NCBI RefSeq assembly: GCF_001412615.1
Contig: NZ_CP013011.1
Coordinates: forward strand, 120,001-152,000
DNA: 32,000 nucleotides
Direction: 5' to 3'
From: Pyrodictium delaneyi
GTDB lineage: Archaea; Thermoproteota; Thermoprotei_A; Sulfolobales; Pyrodictiaceae
Position 1 is the stretch's first letter. Every line of letters starts with the position of its first letter. The position numbers and the translations under genes were made by a program. Under the pieces are notes generated by a model. That model did not search any database, had not been told where the DNA came from, and worked only from the letters and a program-made list of their open reading frames with translations. Shown here piece by piece: positions 14,343 to 21,558 of the stretch.

Positions 14343-15599
14343 TCCCGCCCGCTGCGCCCTCAACGCTAGCTCGGCAGCCTTCCAGGGGTCGTCCAGCTCC
14401 GGTGCGTTAACGCCCTCTTGCCAGGCACGTCGGTACATCTCTGAGATTCTCTCGGCCCTTAGCTCCTCCAGCTCCTCCCTTCCCTCCAGGATCTTCTTAG
14501 CGTATAGCAGAGGCTTTGCATCCCTAGCGCTGAACCGCCACAGATGTTGTTCCCGGAACTCCTCTAGGCTAGTCCAGCTATACCATCGCCTCCACATCTT
14601 CTCGAACACGGCATCAATTAGCCCCGGGTCCTCTAGGGATGGTATACTCTCGAACTCGTGGAGCGCCTTGTAGGGACAGAGAGCACAGGCAACACGCGGC
14701 ACACCATCTAGATAGTCTGGATGGACTAACTCTGCCTCTCGGACAATCGCCACTATATCGGGTAGTGTGAACATGTATGTCGGCCGGAACTTCCTACCGG
14801 TGAGGACTACTCGGCTAGCAGCAGCTTTTGAGAGTCGCTCAAACCTCTTTGGCGACTCTGTGAGCCTATCGCCTATCACCTCTATCAGCTTCGGGTCTTT
14901 CTTCCTAGCCTCCCTCATCGGCTTGGCTTTGTACACAGTGCAGAACCTATAGCCGCGCCGAGGCATGCCCTTCCACTTGAGGAGACTCTTCATATCCCTC
15001 CGCGGGGCGGATCTTACGTCGACAGTAATGCCTAGCCGTGATGCAAGCTTCTCGACGAATTCGACGCTACGCGGGCTCTCCAGGAACGGTATATGGATGA
15101 ACATCACATGGAGTCGGAAGTCTACATACTCTTGTAGCTTGAGGAGTGTGAGGAGTGCGGCCACAGAGTCCTTGCCGCCGCTAAAGCCCAGGAGCACAGT
15201 CCTGCCACGCAGCTCTCTACCGACCATGCGGACAAGCATCCTAGCATACTCGTCGAGGTCAGGAACGGCTCTGGCATGAACGTATGGCGGGGAAGAGAGC
15301 CATGGCCTTACTGGCGCAAAACCACGCCCGCGCCCGGCATCTACTTCCAGTATGCCTCTACGGTTGAGGAGCCCGGTAACATCCAGGGCCCGGCTCCTGG
15401 AGACCCATAGGTAGTAGCGGCAGCTACCGTCAACGTTACAGATCTTTGTAGCGTCGCCCCCACTGCCTACTACTCCACGTAGCTCGCCCCTCTCTATAAC
15501 AGGGTACAATTCAGTCATTGCATGATCACCGCCGTCGGCAACGATGCCCCAGTGTGCTCCGTAGTGGTCAGGGACGGGTGTAGGGGGCGGTCTCCTCAT
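14313..15599 (-). CDS. PAPS reductase/DndC-like PP-loop ATPase family protein, paralog 1
   Basis: 428 aa. Motifs are the PP-loop FSGGKDS (rc 15165-15182), RFCTVYKAKP, VIGDRLTESPKRF and ACALCP. The N-terminal ~110 aa and the ~115 aa C-terminal tail are unassigned. An alternative ATG start is at 15518 (MTELYPV). Confidence 0.75.
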   Translation of the reverse strand: MRRPPPTPVPDHYGAHWGIVADGGDHAMTELYPVIERGELRGVVGSGGDATKICNVDGSCRYYLWVSRSRALDVTGLLNRRGILEVDAGRGRGFAPVRPWLSSPPYVHARAVPDLDEYARMLVRMVGRELRGRTVLLGFSGGKDSVAALLTLLKLQEYVDFRLHVMFIHIPFLESPRSVEFVEKLASRLGITVDVRSAPRRDMKSLLKWKGMPRRGYRFCTVYKAKPMREARKKDPKLIEVIGDRLTESPKRFERLSKAAASRVVLTGRKFRPTYMFTLPDIVAIVREAELVHPDYLDGVPRVACALCPYKALHEFESIPSLEDPGLIDAVFEKMWRRWYSWTSLEEFREQHLWRFSARDAKPLLYAKKILEGREELEELRAERISEMYRRAWQEGVNAPELDDPWKAAELALRAQRAGLPVALPEDY

Positions 15600-15607
15600 A
15601 CCCGGGG

Positions 15608-15647
15608 CCTCGGTGGCTCAACCCTTCATCAGCCCGAGCCCGGGGCT
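15608..15647. repeat. GC-rich motif block, copy 1 (CCTC-GGTGGC-N-GAGCCCGGGGCT)
   Basis: CCTCGGTGGCTCAACCCTTCATCAGCCCGAGCCCGGGGCT shares collinear blocks CCTC, GGTGGC and the 12-mer GAGCCCGGGGCT with 17293-17326. The statistical support is weak. Confidence 0.25.
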
Positions 15648-15758: not shown

Positions 15759-17192
15759 ATGTTCACCATCGTAACGAGGAGTAAACGCGATGCAGACGCC
15801 GTAAAAGCTATGATTGAGCGCTTCTATCCAGGCTGGGGTATAGACGTCAAGACGCTCCATGGGGCGCGCAGCGGCGAGGCAATGCTGCGCGAGCTATCCG
15901 GCATTATCGAGCCAGACCGCTTCTACATAGTACTTCTCGGCAGGGAGGATCGGCGCGCGGCAAGAGAGCTCATCGAGGAGGTGCCGCCTAACGTCGTAGT
16001 ACACGTGGTGCCGCGGTCTCGGGTAAGGAATGCGAGGCTTGAGCTGCTCTACGCGGAGGTAGCTCGTGCCCGTGCCGTCATCAGAGTAACCGCGGTCTGG
16101 GACGAAGCTAGGAAGGTGTTTCTCCTAGGTCCTCGCCGGCGTGGCCAGCCCCTGGAGGGCTTGGAGCCCCAGCCTAGCTTTGACAACTTCATCGGTTTAG
16201 GTAGGTTTGCGAAGATAGTATCGAGGCTCGCAGGGGGTCGAATCGGCCTCAACCCCCTGGTAGTCCGTACACGGGGCGGCTTGCACCTAGTCTACAACGG
16301 GCCTAAGCCGCGGGCCGAGCTAGAGGTTAGGGATGAAGGACTCACGCCTCAGGCACGCATAGTCGGAGACGATGAGCCAGTGGATGTGAACCTTGAGGCA
16401 ATGGTGGAGGCGAACCGGAGCATACTCCAGCTCTACGAGCGGGCTTCCCTAAGGTTCCTAGAGAGCCTGGGAGAGTTCGACACAATAGTTGTGCCCTGGA
16501 GTGGGGGCAAGGACAGTACAGCAATACTTCTACTTGCCATAACCCTCTATGGCCGTGATAAGGTGCGTGTAGTCTACGGCGATACTGGCACGGAGTTCCC
16601 TCTCTCCAAGCACTATGTTGAGGAGCTGGCCCAGAAGCTCGGCATAGAATACGTAGAGGCTTACGGCGGCGTCGATAAGATGCTGCTCGAGGGCGTAGCA
16701 CCCATGCCGACGCATAGTAATAGATGGTGTACCGGGCTCAAAGTGGCAGCGATAGAAGGCGTTGTAAAGAAGCTTGCAGAAGGTCGGACGCTCCTCCTCG
16801 TAGGTGATCGTGACGCCGAATCGCCGCGCCGGAGCGCGCGGCCCCCTGTTAGGCCGGGCCCAGCAGACAACATAACCATGGCGGCGCCGATCAAGCTCTG
16901 GGGAGGAGCACACGTACAGCTCTACGTGCTGTCGAAGGGTGTACCGCTAAACCCCATGTATGAGTACGGCTTCTATCGGATAGGTTGCTATATGTGTCCG
17001 GCCCTACGTAACTGGGAGCTGCACGTGCTGACGACGACGCCTAGGCTGCACCTACAGCTGCTGCGTAGCCCTATCTACAGACGCTTCGTCATGATGCGGT
17101 TACGCGGCAAGACTAAGGCGGCGGATTTTGAGCCGGAAGAGGAGGCGGCTTGTAGCTTCTCGTCGAGCGTTGTGACCGACTGTGGCTACTAG
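15759..17192 (+). CDS. PAPS reductase/DndC-like PP-loop ATPase family protein, paralog 2
   Basis: 477 aa. Motifs are the PP-loop WSGGKDS (16500-16517), RWCTGLKVAA, LVGDRDAESPRRS and GCYMCP (~16985-16999). A ~245 aa N-terminal region is unassigned. Confidence 0.75.
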   Translation: MFTIVTRSKRDADAVKAMIERFYPGWGIDVKTLHGARSGEAMLRELSGIIEPDRFYIVLLGREDRRAARELIEEVPPNVVVHVVPRSRVRNARLELLYAEVARARAVIRVTAVWDEARKVFLLGPRRRGQPLEGLEPQPSFDNFIGLGRFAKIVSRLAGGRIGLNPLVVRTRGGLHLVYNGPKPRAELEVRDEGLTPQARIVGDDEPVDVNLEAMVEANRSILQLYERASLRFLESLGEFDTIVVPWSGGKDSTAILLLAITLYGRDKVRVVYGDTGTEFPLSKHYVEELAQKLGIEYVEAYGGVDKMLLEGVAPMPTHSNRWCTGLKVAAIEGVVKKLAEGRTLLLVGDRDAESPRRSARPPVRPGPADNITMAAPIKLWGGAHVQLYVLSKGVPLNPMYEYGFYRIGCYMCPALRNWELHVLTTTPRLHLQLLRSPIYRRFVMMRLRGKTKAADFEPEEEAACSFSSSVVTDCGY

Positions 17193-17203
17193 CTCCCCAG
17201 AGC

Positions 17204-17242
17204 CCCCGGGAGGCATAAGCATACAAGAGAGGCCTCCCGGGG
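17204..17242 (+). other. perfect 11-bp G+C-rich stem-loop 12 nt after the paralog-2 stop codon
   Basis: CCCCGGGAGGC - 17-nt loop ATAAGCATACAAGAGAG - GCCTCCCGGGG. Confidence 0.5.
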
Positions 17243-17292
17243 AAGCCGCCTCCTCGGGATCCCCGGGGCTGCGGTGCTGACAACCCCTGTTA

Positions 17293-17326
17293 CCTCTAGG
17301 TGGCCCCGAGGAGAGAGCCCGGGGCT
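17293..17326. repeat. GC-rich motif block, copy 2
   Basis: CCTCTAGGTGGCCCCGAGGAGAGAGCCCGGGGCT is collinear with 15608-15647. Confidence 0.25.
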
Positions 17327-17392
17327 GGCAGAGCCCCCGAGGGGCGGGGGGGCTGTGAGGACTTCAGCGGCGACTGAGCAGCCCCTCTGCGG
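17323..17392 (+). repeat. degenerate repeat units upstream of hel308 (GGCTG[TG]G...GAGC..CCCC...GG)
   Basis: The units are 17323-17347 (GGCTGGCAGAGCCCCCGAGGGGCGG) and 17351-17392 (GGCTGTGAGGACTTCAGCGGCGACTGAGCAGCCCCTCTGCGG). They are collinear with 19674-19764. Confidence 0.4.
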
Positions 17393-17427
17393 TGTTGATC
17401 GTACACGGTGTGTGGTGAAGCATCTAG

Positions 17428-19671
17428 ATGCGTGTAGAGGATCTACCCCTGCCAACAGAGGCTAAACGTGTCCTCCTAGAGCGGGGTTACAGCGAGCTAT
17501 TCCCGCCCCAGGAGGAGGCAGTACGGGCAGGTCTCCTTAACGGTGAGAGTATAGTAGTGGCGTCGCCGACGGGCTCGGGTAAGAGTCTCATAGCGCTCCT
17601 CGCTGGTCTACGTGCCCTCGCGGAGCCGGGTAAGAGGTGCCGCGTAGTCTACGCTGCCCCGCTCCGCAGCCTAGTGTACGAGAGGGCTGAGGAGTGGCGT
17701 AGTATACTCGAGAGCCTAGGTAGGCGGGTCGCAGTATCGACTGGTGATTACGACCGCGTCGAGCCCTGGCTGGGTGAGGCCGACGCGGTAATGGTTACCT
17801 ATGAGAAGCTCGACTCGCTCCTACGCCATGGAGCTAGCTGGCTAGCAGACGTCTGCGTCCTCATTGTGGACGAGATACACTATGTAGGGGATCTACGCCG
17901 TGGCCCGGTCCTTGAGACAGTAATAGCGCGGTTAATGGCTATGAACGATGGGATGCAAGTTGTAGCACTAAGCGCCACGATAAGCAATGCTGGAGAGATA
18001 GCGGCATGGCTTGGCGCCCGGCTTGTCGAGAGCAACTGGCGTCCCGTGGAGCTACGCGAGGGCGTCTTTAACAACTATGTGATAGAGTGGGGTGATGGGG
18101 GAGAATCTAGGGTAGAGAAGCGTACCCGTAACCACAGCCTAGACGTTGCTCTCGACGCTGTAGCTGATGGAGGCCAAGCCCTAGTATTCGTGAACTCGCG
18201 CCGGAAGGCTGTAGAGCTGGCAGAGAAACTAGCGGCGGCAGCAGCTAACGATAGCGAGGTACGGCGCCTCCTAGACCCTGGCGGCGCGGCGGGGCCCTAT
18301 GTCAGCATCCTACGCGAGCGCCAGGAGCACCGGGAACTCAACGAGAAGCTCGCTAGGCTACTCAGTCTGGGAATAGGCTTCCACCATGCAGGACTCGCTA
18401 GCTACCAGAGAGACGTAGTAGAGAAGGCATTCCGTGCCCGTGTACTACGCGTGCTAGTAGCAACGCCTACGCTCGCGGCAGGGGTCAATCTTCCTGCCCG
18501 GCGGGTTGTAGTCGATACCCTCTACCGCTTCCGGCCGGGCAGGGGATCTGAGCCGATAAAGGTCTCTGAGTATAAGCAGCTCGCTGGCCGTGCTGGCCGG
18601 CCGGGCCTTGACCCGGTAGGCGAGGCAGTGATAATCGCGAGGACCCAGGAGCAGGCCTGGGAGGCGCTCATAGGCTACGTGCAGGGCGAGCTTGAGCCCA
18701 TAGTCTCTAAGCTCGTCTCTGAGGCAGCTCTGCGAAGTCAAGTGCTTGCAGTAGTCTCGAGCCTAGGCGTGGCCACGGTAGCTGAGGTAGCCCGTGTCTT
18801 CGAGAGGACGCTCTATACGGTTCAAGTAGGCCCACCTCTCGAAGAGATAGACAGGATATCCTGGACTCTGAGCGAGTACGGCTTCATAGACCGTGTCGGC
18901 GACGTGGTGGAAGCAACTGAGACAGGGCGGCGGGTGGCGGAGCTCTATATAGACCCGCTTACCGGGCATAGGATGCTACGTGGGCTAGAGGCGCTTCATA
19001 GCGAGCGGCCGCCGCTTGAGAGGCTCCTATTCCTAGCCCTGTGGAGCCCCGATGCGACGCGAATAAGGCCGCCCCGGGGGCTACACCTAGCTCTAGAGAT
19101 GGAGGCCGAGCAGCTGCTAGAGGACCTGGGCTTCACCCCTTACGAGGAAGTAGGTGAAGCCGATATAGCTGTAGCAGCTGAAGCCCTCTATACTGCTGAT
19201 ATGCTGCTAGACTGGGTGATGGAGAAGCCAGAGGACGTTATCCTAGCGAAGTATGGGATAGATCCTGGCGACCTCCGTGGTGTGGTAGAGACTTCCGCAT
19301 GGCTGGTATACTCCATGGCGCAGCTGGCTAGGGTTACTGGGCATCCCGCAGCAGCTTACCTAGACAAACTGACAGTAATGGTGAAGCATGGCGTCCAGGA
19401 GGAGCTAGTAGAGCTTGTAAAGCTCCCAGGAATAGGCAGGGTACGTGCACGCCGCCTCTACGAGGCAGGATATCGCAGCCCTAGCGACCTGGCTGGGCTT
19501 AATCCCGAGCAGCTTGCTCAGCTCCTCCGTGGCCTCGGCGAGGAGCGTGCCCGCCAGGCACTAGCTGAGGCACAACGCTCAGCACGTAGAGAGCATAGGG
19601 TCTCCAAGGAGAAGCTCAGCGCTGATGGACGGAGAGGGCAGAGGAGTATACTAGACTACCTCAGCGGATAA
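17428..19671 (+). CDS. hel308: Hel308/Hjm (Ski2-like) ATP-dependent DNA helicase
   Basis: 747 aa. Helicase motifs are motif I ASPTGSGKS, motif II DEIH, motif III SAT, HHAGL, ATPTLAAGVNLPARRVV and QLAGRAGRPG. The C-terminal helix-hairpin-helix region is LPGIGRVRARRLYEAGY. Confidence 0.9.
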   Translation: MRVEDLPLPTEAKRVLLERGYSELFPPQEEAVRAGLLNGESIVVASPTGSGKSLIALLAGLRALAEPGKRCRVVYAAPLRSLVYERAEEWRSILESLGRRVAVSTGDYDRVEPWLGEADAVMVTYEKLDSLLRHGASWLADVCVLIVDEIHYVGDLRRGPVLETVIARLMAMNDGMQVVALSATISNAGEIAAWLGARLVESNWRPVELREGVFNNYVIEWGDGGESRVEKRTRNHSLDVALDAVADGGQALVFVNSRRKAVELAEKLAAAAANDSEVRRLLDPGGAAGPYVSILRERQEHRELNEKLARLLSLGIGFHHAGLASYQRDVVEKAFRARVLRVLVATPTLAAGVNLPARRVVVDTLYRFRPGRGSEPIKVSEYKQLAGRAGRPGLDPVGEAVIIARTQEQAWEALIGYVQGELEPIVSKLVSEAALRSQVLAVVSSLGVATVAEVARVFERTLYTVQVGPPLEEIDRISWTLSEYGFIDRVGDVVEATETGRRVAELYIDPLTGHRMLRGLEALHSERPPLERLLFLALWSPDATRIRPPRGLHLALEMEAEQLLEDLGFTPYEEVGEADIAVAAEALYTADMLLDWVMEKPEDVILAKYGIDPGDLRGVVETSAWLVYSMAQLARVTGHPAAAYLDKLTVMVKHGVQEELVELVKLPGIGRVRARRLYEAGYRSPSDLAGLNPEQLAQLLRGLGEERARQALAEAQRSARREHRVSKEKLSADGRRGQRSILDYLSG

Positions 19672-19673
19672 CT

Positions 19674-19764
19674 CTCTGCGGCTGTGAGGAGACCGCCAGT
19701 GTCTGAGCCCCTCGGAGGGGCGGCGAGGGGCTGTGACTGTGCTTCGCTGACCGAGCCCTACGGG
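19674..19764 (+). repeat. degenerate repeat units downstream of hel308
   Basis: The units are 19680-19718 (GGCTGTGAGGAGACCGCCAGTGTCTGAGCCCCTCGGAGG) and 19729-19764 (GGCTGTGACTGTGCTTCGCTGACCGAGCCCTACGGG). I counted 82 G+C in 19671-19790 (68%). Confidence 0.4.
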
Positions 19765-19799
19765 ACAATGCCTAGGGGCACAGCCTCGGGTGAGAAAGC

Positions 19800-19807
19800 T
19801 TTTTGTA
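19800..19807 (+). promoter_or_regulatory. TTTTTGTA: T5 tract, either terminator for hel308 / the structured element or TATA box for TIP49
   Basis: The T5 run at 19800-19804 directly follows the GC-rich structured block. Its centre lies about 29 nt upstream of the ATG at 19832, which is leaderless promoter spacing. The two roles cannot be separated from sequence alone. Confidence 0.35.
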
Positions 19808-19831
19808 GAAGCGGGTTGAAGCCGCGTTCCA

Positions 19832-21199
19832 ATGGGTGCCAAGAGTATGGCAGCAATAAAGGAGGTAAAACCAGTAAAGGAGACCAGAAGGGTCGGCGCA
19901 CACAGCCACATCAGGGGGCTAGGCCTCGACGAGAACGGTCACGCCAAATTCGTAGCTGACGGTATGGTTGGCCAGACAGAGGCACGCGAAGCAGCAGGCA
20001 TAGTAGTCCAAATGATACGTGAAGGCAAAATGGCTGGTCGTGGTGTATTGATAGTAGGTCCAAGCGGAACCGGGAAGACAGCCATAGCAGTAGGCATAGC
20101 CAAGGAGTTAGGCGAGGATACACCATTCGTAGCCATGAGTGGTTCAGAGATATACAGTAGCGAGCTAAAGAAGACGGAAGTACTCATGCAGGCTCTGCGT
20201 AAGTCAATAGGCGTGAGGTTCCGCGAACGGAGAACAGTATACGAGGGCGCAGTTAAGCAGCTCCGCATAGCCTACGTGAAGCACCCGTTCAACCCCTACG
20301 TGAAGGTGCCCCGTGAAGCAGAGATAGTTCTAGAGACTACCGATGATAGCTTGAAGCTGCGCGTAGGTGAAGAGATAGCGGTCCAACTCCTCCAGCTACG
20401 AGTCCGCCGCGGTGACGTGATATGGATAGACGCCGAGACAGGTGAAGTTCACAAGGTAGGCCGTCTATGTAGTGAGAGTCGCTATGACATATCGGCATAT
20501 AGATGCGTAGAGAAGCCGAGCGGGTCAGTAAAGAAGGACAAGGAGATAGTCCACATGTTGACACTACACGACCTAGACGTGGCTTACGCAGCCCAGCGGG
20601 CGGCGGTAGCAAGTTTCCTAGGCATGCCAATAACAAGAGAGATACCAAGCGATGTGCGCCAGCGTGTTGACGAAGAGGTAAAGAAGCTAGTAAACGAGGG
20701 CCGTGCCGAGCTTGTGCCCGGCGTACTCTTCATAGACGATGCTCATATGCTCGACATAGAGGCGTTCAGCTTCCTGACAAGAGCTATGGAGAGCGAGCTA
20801 GCCCCGATACTAGTACTCGCGACTAACCGGGGCATGACCAAGATAAGGGGTACCGACATAGAAGCACCGCATGGAATACCGCTAGATCTGCTAGACCGCC
20901 TCCTCATAATAAGGACAAGACCCTACACAGCTGAGGAGATACGTGAGATACTAAAGATACGTGCTGACGAGGAAGAGATACCGCTCAGCGATGATGCTCT
21001 CGAAGAACTAACCAGACTGGGTGTGGAGCGTAGTCTCCGCTATGCAGTACAGCTCATGGAGCCAGCACGTATACTTGCAGAACGCGAGGGCAGGACCAAG
21101 GTGACCGTAGAAGATGTAAAAAAGGCTGCAAAGTACTTTGTCGACCTCCGGGAAAGCGTGCAATACATACAGCAGTACGAAGAGAAGCTGCTAAAGTAA
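19832..21199 (+). CDS. TIP49 / RuvB-like AAA+ ATPase (archaeal RuvBL homolog)
   Basis: 455 aa. It has HSHIRGLGLD, Walker A GPSGTGKT (20057-20080) and a domain II insertion. VPGVLFIDDAHMLDIEAFSFLTRAMES is near-identical in pattern to eukaryotic RuvBL VPGVLFIDEVHMLDIE. An alternative ATG start is at 19847. Confidence 0.9.
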   Translation: MGAKSMAAIKEVKPVKETRRVGAHSHIRGLGLDENGHAKFVADGMVGQTEAREAAGIVVQMIREGKMAGRGVLIVGPSGTGKTAIAVGIAKELGEDTPFVAMSGSEIYSSELKKTEVLMQALRKSIGVRFRERRTVYEGAVKQLRIAYVKHPFNPYVKVPREAEIVLETTDDSLKLRVGEEIAVQLLQLRVRRGDVIWIDAETGEVHKVGRLCSESRYDISAYRCVEKPSGSVKKDKEIVHMLTLHDLDVAYAAQRAAVASFLGMPITREIPSDVRQRVDEEVKKLVNEGRAELVPGVLFIDDAHMLDIEAFSFLTRAMESELAPILVLATNRGMTKIRGTDIEAPHGIPLDLLDRLLIIRTRPYTAEEIREILKIRADEEEIPLSDDALEELTRLGVERSLRYAVQLMEPARILAEREGRTKVTVEDVKKAAKYFVDLRESVQYIQQYEEKLLK

Positions 21200-21558
21200 G
21201 AGCACTTCCATGGCTCAGCCTTCTTCCATTAACATAACTCAGTAGTAATTATTGTCTTTTCATTCTACTACTTTGCCGACGCTCGTTCGGGGATGTATCG
21301 TATCCTACCTATCGATAGCGAACACTCTTTATAGGGAGTGGTATTGAAGAGGGGTTTAGAAAGTCGAGACACCTAGCTCATGAAGAGACGTATGAAATTA
21401 GCGGAATATCCTCATTAAAAGTATTGTATTATTAGTCAGTCATACTTGCACAGTGAGCTACTGATAAATGTAATGTAACGTAATTGTATGGTTCAGTCGT
21501 AAAACATGCATGTTGCTTGTAATGTATTACTCGTAAGTGGGGAGGGAATGGTGCAGTT

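Follow-up and report, generated by a model that had tools for sequence, protein, structure and literature searches.

The locus and the similarity of its two spacers

This study concerns hel308 of Pyrodictium delaneyi and the two intergenic spacers that flank it, in a stretch of 32,000 nucleotides (contig NZ_CP013011.1, positions 120,001 to 152,000; the whole stretch is referred to as the window, and positions are counted from its first letter). An earlier inspection of the letters of the window, here called the sequence-only reading, had pointed out degenerate direct repeats on both sides of hel308. The analysis described below indicates that both flanks very probably encode archeal C/D box small RNAs (sRNAs), which would act as guides for the L7Ae-Nop5-fibrillarin particle and address helix 68 of 23S ribosomal RNA (rRNA). 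The genes and spacers of the locus are as follows.

15759-17192, PAPS_reduct gene, the upstream neighbor of hel308
17193-17427, spacer upstream of hel308, 235 nt, 68% G+C
17428-19671, + strand, hel308 (747 amino acids; Pfam DEAD, Helicase_C, Helicase_dom4_arc and HHH_5)
19672-19831, spacer downstream of hel308, 160 nt, 64% G+C
19832-21199, gene for a TIP49/RuvB-like ATPase (ATG at 19832), adjoining the downstream C/D sRNA

Each of the five exact blocks that the sequence-only reading reported as shared between the flanks was found at the position claimed for it, and a 29-nt repeat pair (17351-17379 and 19680-19708) appeared as a single family (D2) in a repeat scan. Smith-Waterman alignment of the upstream spacer (17193-17427) with the downstream one (19672-19831) gave a score of 38, with 17308-17358 aligned to 19685-19736. 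Dinucleotide-preserving shuffles of the spacers scored 18.4±2.7, so that the observed value lies 7 standard deviations above them; it was reached in 1 of 2000 shuffles and in none of 1000 in a repeat run, and the reverse-complement control scored 19. The similarity between the flanks of hel308 is real and strand-specific, and formal alignment against shuffled sequences bore out what had been seen by eye. The same flank-versus-flank test gave p=0.001 in Pyrodictium abyssi and p=0.001 in a Hyperthermus metagenome-assembled genome (MAG), and was weak in Pyrodictium occultum (0.08) and in a metagenome locus, L128 (0.05). One of the shared blocks, the octamer CUCUGCGG, lies at 17385-17392, after the 3′ stem of the upstream sRNA, and at 19674-19681, before the 5′ stem of the downstream one; it is not kept in P. 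abyssi or P. occultum and is probably a chance match.

The repeated unit can be written as GGCU-GUGAGGA-(12 nt)-CUGA-GC(C), that is, a stem strand, a C-type box, a spacer of guide length, a D-type box and a second stem strand. A C box and a D box with flanking stems form the kink-turn (K-turn) signature of archeal C/D box methylation guide RNAs. The motif GGCTGTGA...CTGAGC, whose class had gone unrecognized in the sequence-only reading, is such a combination of a C box (RUGAUGA type) and a D box (CUGA) with their stem strands. Among the four repeat units distinguished at first, 17351-17392, 19680-19718 and 19729-19764 are equivalent, each with a C-type box, a guide of about 12 nt and a D-type box, but the short form at 17323-17347 is not a unit at all and consists of a D′ box, CAGA, and the hairpin of a D′-C′ linker.

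Architecture of the two predicted RNAs

The downstream RNA, of about 78 nt (19680-19757), is a canonical double-guide C/D box sRNA composed of the following parts.

19680-19683, + strand, 5′ terminal stem GGC (19680-19682) and a bulged U, beginning 9 nt after the hel308 stop codon
19684-19690, + strand, C box GUGAGGA, with positions 5 and 6 pairing with D box positions 2 and 1
19691-19702, + strand, D′ guide GACCGCCAGUGU, 12 nt, invariant in six taxa except for the box-proximal nucleotide
19703-19706, + strand, D′ box CUGA (CUGA or CCGA in all taxa)
19707-19732, + strand, D′-C′ linker, 26 nt, with an 8-bp stem GCCCCUCG (19707-19714)/CGAGGGGC (19724-19731) and a bulged U at 19732
19733-19739, + strand, degenerate C′ box GUGACUG (in relatives GUGACGU, GUGAGGA, AUGACGA or GUGAUGA)
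19740-19750, + strand, D guide UGCUUCGCUGA, 11 nt, conserved core (G)YGYUUCGCNG
19751-19754, + strand, D box CCGA
19755-19757, + strand, 3′ terminal stem GCC

The stem and bulge of the linker give it the geometry of a K-turn rather than that of a kink-loop (K-loop), and this stem belongs to the minimum-free-energy (MFE) structure. A scan of the 32 kb for a C box, 11-13 nt, a D′ box, a linker, a C′ box, 11-13 nt and a D box, enclosed by a terminal stem, returned one match, the downstream element itself, against 0-1 in shuffled sequences; the test is a weak one because the pattern was drawn partly from that element.

The upstream RNA, of about 121 nt (17265-17385), is a longer variant of the same plan.

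17265-17272, + strand, 5′ terminal stem GGGGCUGC, pairing with 17378-17385 and present in the MFE structure
17274-17280, + strand, C box GUGCUGA (RUGAUGA with A4 replaced by C), invariant in all six taxa and directly after the terminal stem
17281-17328, + strand, D′ spacer, 48 nt, with a conserved CAACCCCUGUU (17281-17291) followed by a lineage-specific insertion
17329-17332, + strand, D′ box CAGA (CAGA, CGGA or CCGA in all taxa), followed directly by a stem strand
17333-17354, + strand, D′-C′ linker, 22 nt, in which GCCCCC (17333-17338) can pair with GGGGGC (17348-17353)
17355-17361, + strand, C′ box GUGAGGA (GUGAGGA, AUGAGGA, GUGAAGA or GUGAAGC in the six taxa)
17362-17373, + strand, D guide CUUCAGCGGCGA, 12 nt, in which CUUCAGCGGCG is invariant in six taxa and the box-proximal nucleotide alone varies (A/G)
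17374-17377, + strand, D box CUGA, invariant and followed directly by the 3′ stem strand
17378-17385, + strand, 3′ terminal stem GCAGCCCC, pairing with 17265-17272

Its C′-guide-D half is fully canonical; the C box and the swollen D′ spacer depart from the plan. The pair between the G at 17280-1 and the C of the D box is invariant. The insertion in the D′ spacer carries a hairpin, CCCCG/CGGGG (17304-17308/17320-17324), and the length of the spacer falls from 48 nt in the window to 36 (P. abyssi), 29 (P. occultum), 19 (Hyperthermus) and about 14 (L128). No significant complement of the spacer was found in the rRNA operons of relatives, and it is probably an orphan or degenerate guide that no longer directs methylation. 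The linker, 82-91% conserved among Pyrodictium and L128, can alternatively form the hairpin GCCCC/GGGGC (17333-17337/17341-17345). A self-contained 42-nt K-turn hairpin built from GGGGCU...AGCCCC around the C′-guide-D segment was considered and rejected, for L128 cannot form this proximal stem and it is the distal stem that covaries. For a conserved segment after the upstream C box, (N)AACCCCUGUUG, a complement of 10 nt, CAACAGGGGU, occurs in two Desulfurococcales (L127 and L071), within a hairpin of the 16S-23S spacer about 40 nt before the 5′ end of 23S rRNA; the match is not significant, and may reflect either binding to the pre-rRNA spacer or chance.

When the two RNAs are compared with the usual features of C/D box sRNAs, the terminal C/D K-turn is present in the downstream RNA (GUGAGGA with CCGA, GGC/GCC) and partly so in the upstream one (GUGCUGA). 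Internal D′ and C′ boxes occur in both, as CUGA with GUGACUG downstream and as CAGA with GUGAGGA upstream, and their position is kept in all taxa. Guides of about 12 nt are found in both downstream positions (12 and 11 nt) and in the upstream D position (12 nt), but not in the upstream D′ position, which has 48 nt (14-36 in relatives). Complementarity to rRNA of at least 9 bp, with a Watson-Crick pair at the nucleotide opposite the fifth guide residue from the box (N+5), was found for two guides on the 23S rRNA of relatives.

Conservation and compensatory changes

The comparison covered P. abyssi (L002) and P. occultum (L003 and L004), whose Hel308 proteins are 88% and 81% identical, respectively, to that of the window, two Hyperthermus-like MAG loci (L001 and L129; about 60-63%), and three distant hel308 loci, L128 (63%), L130 (56%) and L131 (52%). 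A scan of genome contigs yielded only one relative, a Hyperthermus MAG, and exact-protein look-ups of the Hel308 and TIP49 of the window returned no record. P. abyssi, P. occultum, the two Hyperthermus MAGs and L128 have both elements in the same positions next to hel308. The downstream RNA stands at the 3′ end of hel308 in every locus compared except L131, and the upstream RNA is present in every one except L130 and L131, while the gene order PAPS_reduct-hel308-TIP49 is kept in relatives with or without the RNA elements. In L128 a radical-SAM gene has been inserted before TIP49, and the downstream RNA remains beside hel308.

Within spacers that otherwise diverge fast, the guides do not vary: six taxa share CUUCAGCGGCG and GACCGCCAGUG without change, 11 of the 12 guide positions are fixed, and the variable one is the nucleotide next to the D or D′ box, which is predicted to be unpaired with the target. 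The downstream D′ guide has one change in L130. The stems, on the other hand, change in sequence and retain pairing. For the downstream RNA, 88.6% of the alignment cells are paired, compared with 68.3% after shuffling (0/500) and at most 55% in slid controls, and 12 of 18 pairs are changed on both sides. Its linker stem is paired in 100% of cells with 7 of 8 pairs changed on both sides across taxa, appearing as GCCCC/GGGGC, CCACCC/GGGUGG and GUAA/UUAC; the window has GCCCCUCG/CGAGGGGC, Hyperthermus CCACCCUC/GAGGGUGG and L130 GUAA/UUAC. The GGC/GCC core of the downstream terminal stem is invariant and its outer pairs covary. Between C box positions 5 and 6 and D box positions 2 and 1, Pyrodictium has the pairs G-C/G-C; Hyperthermus, whose boxes read GUGAGCG and GCGA, has G-C/C-G, and L130 has A-U/G·U. 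For the upstream terminal stem in six taxa, 88.9% of cells are paired versus 72.1% after shuffling (0/500), and 5 of 8 pairs are double-changed (GGGGCUGC/GCAGCCCC, GGGAGGC/GCCCCUCC and CCUCUCUGC/GCACAGAGG). These counts were made on hand-extracted constructs of equal length from which guides and loops had been removed, as MAFFT misaligned the 3′ ends of the full-length downstream RNAs; two nucleotides (AU) were taken out of L128 in the upstream set, and Ns were put in where L128 and L130 have no comparable linker.

Guides and their predicted targets in 23S rRNA

Two of the guides recur in published sRNAs. Behind an AUGAGGA C box, Ignicoccus hospitalis sR103 has a D′ guide (GACCGCCAGTGT) with exactly the sequence of the downstream D′ guide, and the D guide that precedes CTGA in Pyrobaculum calidifontis sR33 (CTTCAGCGGCG) is identical to the upstream D guide; both sRNAs are given in the supplement of Dennis et al. 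2015 (PMC4644070; BMC Genomics 16:632), where the sRNAs were defined from RNA-seq. The D guide of sR33 was placed in helix 68-69 of 23S rRNA by Lui et al. 2018 (PMC6009581; NAR 46:5678), and helices 68-71 constitute a methylation hotspot at the subunit interface according to Dennis et al. (PMC4644070).

On the 23S rRNA of relatives, the downstream D′ guide matches CACUGGCGGUC at 11 of 12 positions (Escherichia coli 1837-1848, N+5 at U1841), and the upstream D guide matches CGCCGCUGAAG, likewise at 11 of 12 (E. coli 1891-1902, N+5 at C1895); E. coli positions were mapped through the alignment of PMC4644070 onto E. coli rrlH. Both sites are the best matches of their guides in whole crenarcheal rRNA operons, with 11 contiguous Watson-Crick pairs in the 23S rRNA of Ignicoccus, Desulfurococcus-type organisms and Pyrobaculum, and the N+5 pairs are A-U and G-C. 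In the Ignicoccus 23S alignment (PMC4644070) the two complements fall within one 60-nt stretch, CCACUGGCGGUC...GGCGAAGCGCCGCUGAAGG, numbered 1837-1902 in E. coli, and a local fold of this segment makes the two targets opposite strands of one predicted helix.

The downstream D guide can pair with CGGCGAAGCGC over 9-11 bp, G·U pairs included, in heterologous 23S rRNA, with N+5 at about E. coli C1887. Its C/U changes fall opposite G residues of this proposed target, which lies 35 nt 3′ of the D′ target, a distance that agrees with the definition of a “double guide” by Dennis et al. (PMC4644070); because of these two features the target is favored.

A neutral crenarcheal 23S pattern retrieved 120 metagenome loci, mostly of the Thaumarchaeota/Bathyarchaeota type, with about 15 operons from hyperthermophiles. 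The two sites matched by the strong guides are present in the 23S rRNA of Ignicoccus, Pyrobaculum, Thermoproteus and Desulfurococcus-type organisms, including Desulfurococcus mucosus, and absent from Thaumarchaeota/Bathyarchaeota-type 23S rRNA among these loci; they occur only in the hyperthermophile type. The 23S rRNA of Pyrodictium was not reached through the metagenome 23S pattern, through handles in antisense open reading frames (ORFs) of the 23S gene, which led to D. mucosus and to Logan assemblies, or through the UbiA neighbor of the operon.

Relation to known C/D box sRNAs

With archeal C/D box sRNAs in general, the two RNAs share the boxes, guides of about 12 nt, the terminal stem, K-turn geometry, rRNA-complementary guides and genes that abut ORF ends, which by analogy would presumably mean excision from longer transcripts. 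They differ in that both have a stem-loop of 22-26 nt in place of the usual K-loop spacer of 3-9 nt, and the upstream RNA differs also by its non-consensus C box and expanded spacer. The downstream RNA resembles Ignicoccus sR103 in having the identical D′ guide GACCGCCAGUGU in the same register, between an xUGAGGA C box and the D′ box, in the double-guide plan, and in the predicted target, the 5′ strand of 23S helix 68 (label I103 above CCACUGGCGGUC in PMC4644070). It differs in the D guide, which is GAGCCGAGUUGG in sR103 and UGCUUCGCUGA in the window, and in the D′-C′ spacer, which is short (CCCCG) in sR103 compared with 26 nt and an 8-bp stem in the window. The upstream RNA has in common with Pyrobaculum sR33 the D guide core CUUCAGCGGCG followed by CUGA, and the target in 23S helix 68-69. 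In the window, however, this guide is one nucleotide longer before the D box, which would shift the predicted site by one (to a C, not the neighboring G), and sR33 of P. calidifontis is a compact 50-nt RNA with a canonical C box (UGAUGA) and a 12-nt D′ guide, in contrast to the roughly 121 nt, GUGCUGA and 48-nt spacer seen here. Since the second guides differ in both comparisons, the RNAs of the window may be modular relatives of sR33 and sR103 rather than strict orthologs.

Several observations weigh against the assignment to this class and to these targets. Each 11/12 match has a probability of only about 0.05 per 7-kb operon when compared with shuffled guides, and complementarity was computed on the rRNA of relatives rather than on that of the source genome. 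Taken alone, the match of the downstream D guide to heterologous 23S rRNA does not reach significance, and among taxa the register of this guide to the D box shifts by 1-3 nt. In the upstream C box the second A of the tandem G·A pairs, which is normally essential, is replaced by C, and the upstream D′ spacer has 48 nt where about 12 would be expected. Rfam gave no family at gathering thresholds in the window and nothing relevant at E-values up to 10 in 17100-19900; to our knowledge, Rfam covers few crenarcheal sRNA families. Scans for tRNA and tmRNA found nothing. The shared fold that the sequence-only reading had described receives no support from folding energies, which are no better than those of shuffles (z = −1.4 and −0.2, with similar values for the minus strands), but it is supported by the compensatory base changes across species. 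Folding energy is uninformative in this case, as is to be expected of RNAs whose guides are unstructured and whose K-turns are non-canonical. On balance we regard the C/D box assignment as very probable. The suggestion of a paralogous sRNA, one of several meanings offered by the sequence-only reading, was right in substance: both flanks correspond to small RNAs of one family, with internal segments that look homologous. Three outcomes had been named beforehand as fatal to the claim (an alignment score at the level of shuffles, absence of the motif both from the rest of the genome and from orthologous hel308 flanks, and lack of structural conservation of the two hairpins), and none of them was observed when all three were tested.

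Alternative explanations

The elements might instead be, mainly or additionally, cis-regulatory K-turns in the hel308 mRNA, with L7Ae bound in the 5′ and 3′ untranslated regions (UTRs) to control translation or stability. Such a role would suit the closeness of the elements to the gene, as the upstream RNA ends 42 nt before the hel308 AUG, with no clear TATA box in between, and the downstream RNA begins 9 nt after the stop codon; it would also suit the pairing of both with hel308 in six taxa and the retention of the downstream RNA beside hel308 in L128 despite the inserted gene. Moreover, L7Ae of Sulfolobus has been proposed to bind K-turns in mRNAs and to affect translation in this way (PMC5539422). 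The most conserved parts of the elements are, however, the 12-nt guides that match rRNA and published trans-acting sRNAs, neither of which cis-regulation needs. L130 and L131 keep hel308 without the upstream element, the latter without either, and nearness to ORF ends is typical of sRNA genes generally. We therefore consider a regulatory role of this kind unlikely.

Features acting at the level of DNA are a far less probable explanation. The flanks had been suggested to be binding sites for a regulator of hel308, or scars of a duplication or cassette-like insertion, and one may accordingly think of operators for a transcription factor or of terminal-repeat remnants of a duplication, a MITE-like (miniature inverted-repeat transposable element) insertion or a cassette that brought in hel308. 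Same-strand direct repeats do bracket a single gene, and MITE-like elements resembling sRNAs have been reported in Pyrobaculum (PMC6009581). The operator version is not supported, because what is conserved are RNA motifs specific to one strand, the conserved 12-mers find their complements in 23S rRNA, and the stems evolve by compensatory substitutions that keep RNA base pairing, which DNA-binding sites do not need. The insertion version fares no better: both elements occupy orthologous positions across divergence at the genus and family levels, in taxa whose Hel308 is only 56-63% identical, which argues against a recent insertion; the two copies carry different guides; the repeat scan found no target-site duplications or terminal inverted repeats; and the PAPS_reduct-hel308-TIP49 synteny is kept with and without the elements.

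That the similarity is a chance or compositional effect of functionless, G+C-rich hyperthermophile spacers is hardly credible, for in spite of a G+C content of 64-68%, the many equally long imperfect repeats inside hel308 itself and the shuffle-like folding energies, the alignment score lies 7 standard deviations above dinucleotide shuffles, and invariant guides and compensatory stem changes persist in six taxa within otherwise fast-evolving spacers, so that this explanation is already refuted.

Origin of the similarity between the two probable sRNA genes

If both flanks are C/D box sRNA genes, their resemblance has two sources, the boxes shared by the whole family and a homologous D′-linker-C′ segment, the latter contributing most of the score. 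Over this segment the two RNAs of the window share 85% identity, versus 62% for the downstream orthologs of the window and P. occultum. The flank-to-flank match in Hyperthermus is equally significant, but the shared sequence is a different one, UCCGAC(CA)CCCUCU(CG)CCGUGGGGGUG. When linkers were paired among lineages, the same-genome pairing was the best of 24 permutations, a result that is suggestive at most with only four lineages. These sequence comparisons suggest that the two sRNA genes share ancestry, with occasional segmental conversion; modular exchange between sRNA genes has been remarked on by Dennis et al. (PMC4644070).

A further reading, which we hold to be doubtful, is that the RNAs are a coevolving and coexpressed pair, one in each UTR of the hel308 transcript. 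It is considered because the RNAs address opposing strands of one rRNA helix, and the D′-linker-C′ modules, which are alike within a lineage but different between Pyrodictium and Hyperthermus, imply either repeated gene conversion or a shared lineage-specific partner. The two RNAs might then join in one dimeric small ribonucleoprotein particle (di-sRNP), which would open helix 68 and methylate it. On this view the upstream RNA, with its defective C box and expanded spacer, would be a specialized single-guide variant, and bound L7Ae could also tune hel308 translation.

Proposed mechanism and biogenesis

For two ordinary members of the C/D box class, the course of events expected by analogy with known systems is that L7Ae would bind the K-turns and Nop5 and fibrillarin would then assemble, after which each guide would place the rRNA nucleotide paired to the fifth residue from the D or D′ box for 2′-O-methylation. 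The downstream D′ guide would pair with the 5′ strand of helix 68 (about U1841), the upstream D guide with the opposing 3′ strand (about C1895), and the downstream D guide probably with the adjacent GCGAAGC (about C1887). Binding of both strands could, again by analogy, hold the helix open during assembly, in line with the chaperone role of sRNA binding that Dennis et al. (PMC4644070) proposed.

hel308 is not part of either RNA; it is conserved as their neighbor and is likely co-transcribed with them. Two further sequence features bear on how the RNAs might be produced.

17213-17228, + strand, AT-rich box GCATAAGCATACAAGA, about 40 nt before the upstream sRNA
19800-19813, + strand, TTTTTGTAGAAGCG, some 30 nt ahead of the TIP49 start, with one and the same sequence in the window, P. 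abyssi, P. occultum and Hyperthermus

The downstream RNA might be cut from the hel308 3′ UTR, because it begins 9 nt past the stop codon without a promoter-like box, precedes TTTTTGTAGAAGCG with its T5 run, and stays with hel308 in L128; excision from 3′ UTRs is a common mode for crenarcheal sRNAs (PMC6009581). Judging from its position, TTTTTGTAGAAGCG is likely an oligo-T terminator for hel308 and the sRNA, a TATA-type promoter of TIP49, or both. The upstream RNA could be made from the AT-rich box about 40 nt upstream (TTAAAATATA in L128), possibly sharing the hel308 transcript. That box has counterparts at the same relative place in P. abyssi (GCATAAGGCATACAAGA), P. occultum (GTTAAAGG) and L128 (CATTAAAATATAGCA) and is possibly a TATA-type promoter. 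Just past the PAPS_reduct stop codon, an 11-nt inverted repeat, CCCCGGGAGGC/GCCUCCCGGGG (17204-17240), encloses the AT-rich AUAAGCAUACAAGAGA; P. abyssi keeps the AT-rich box after PAPS_reduct but not the surrounding inverted repeat.

In Crenarchaeota, sRNA genes as a rule abut or overlap ORF ends, with C boxes supplying stop codons (PMC6009581). The Hyperthermus MAGs show such overlaps at both sRNAs: the last PAPS_reduct codons run into the 5′ half of the upstream one, made up of terminal stem, C box and AACCCC (L001 9880-9913, also L129), and the hel308 stop codon UGA lies inside the downstream C box GUGAGCG (L001 12150-12170, also L129).

The assignment would add two, possibly three, unannotated guide RNA genes to a Pyrodictium genome, the two beside hel308 having already known guide specificities, predict three 2′-O-methylation sites in 23S helix 68, and describe an sRNA-hel308-sRNA arrangement conserved across the Pyrodictiaceae. 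Its use lies in annotation and in rRNA-modification maps of organisms growing above 100 °C, and it leaves the general knowledge of C/D box RNAs unchanged. Points of interest for specialists are the K-turn-forming stem-loop that replaces the usual K-loop, a conserved C box without the second G·A pair, and the signs of segmental homogenization between sRNA genes that lie 2.3 kb apart and target opposite strands of one helix.

Additional observations

The eukaryotic proteins RUVBL1/2 take part in the assembly of box C/D small nucleolar ribonucleoproteins, and a TIP49/RuvBL homolog adjoins the downstream C/D sRNA in most relatives. This adjacency is probably coincidental, because the radical-SAM insertion in L128 breaks it while the sRNA stays with hel308. 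The spacer that follows TIP49 (21200-21558, 359 nt) has a G+C content of 40%, compared with a window mean of 54%.

A third C/D-like candidate was noticed at 15568-15635 on the minus strand, in a 66%-G+C spacer between two divergent PAPS_reduct genes. It has a C box CUGAUGA (15632-26), a 12-nt D′ guide AGGGUUGAGCCA (15625-14), a D′ box CCGA, a C′ box AUGAGGA (15599-93), the AUG of which begins the longest ORF of the minus-strand gene, and a D box CUGA (15571-68) preceded by a 21-nt spacer. The best heterologous complement of its guide, GGGCUCAACCC in 16S rRNA, matches at only 10 of 12 positions. The block from the C box through the guide to the D′ box is invariant in P. abyssi and P. occultum.

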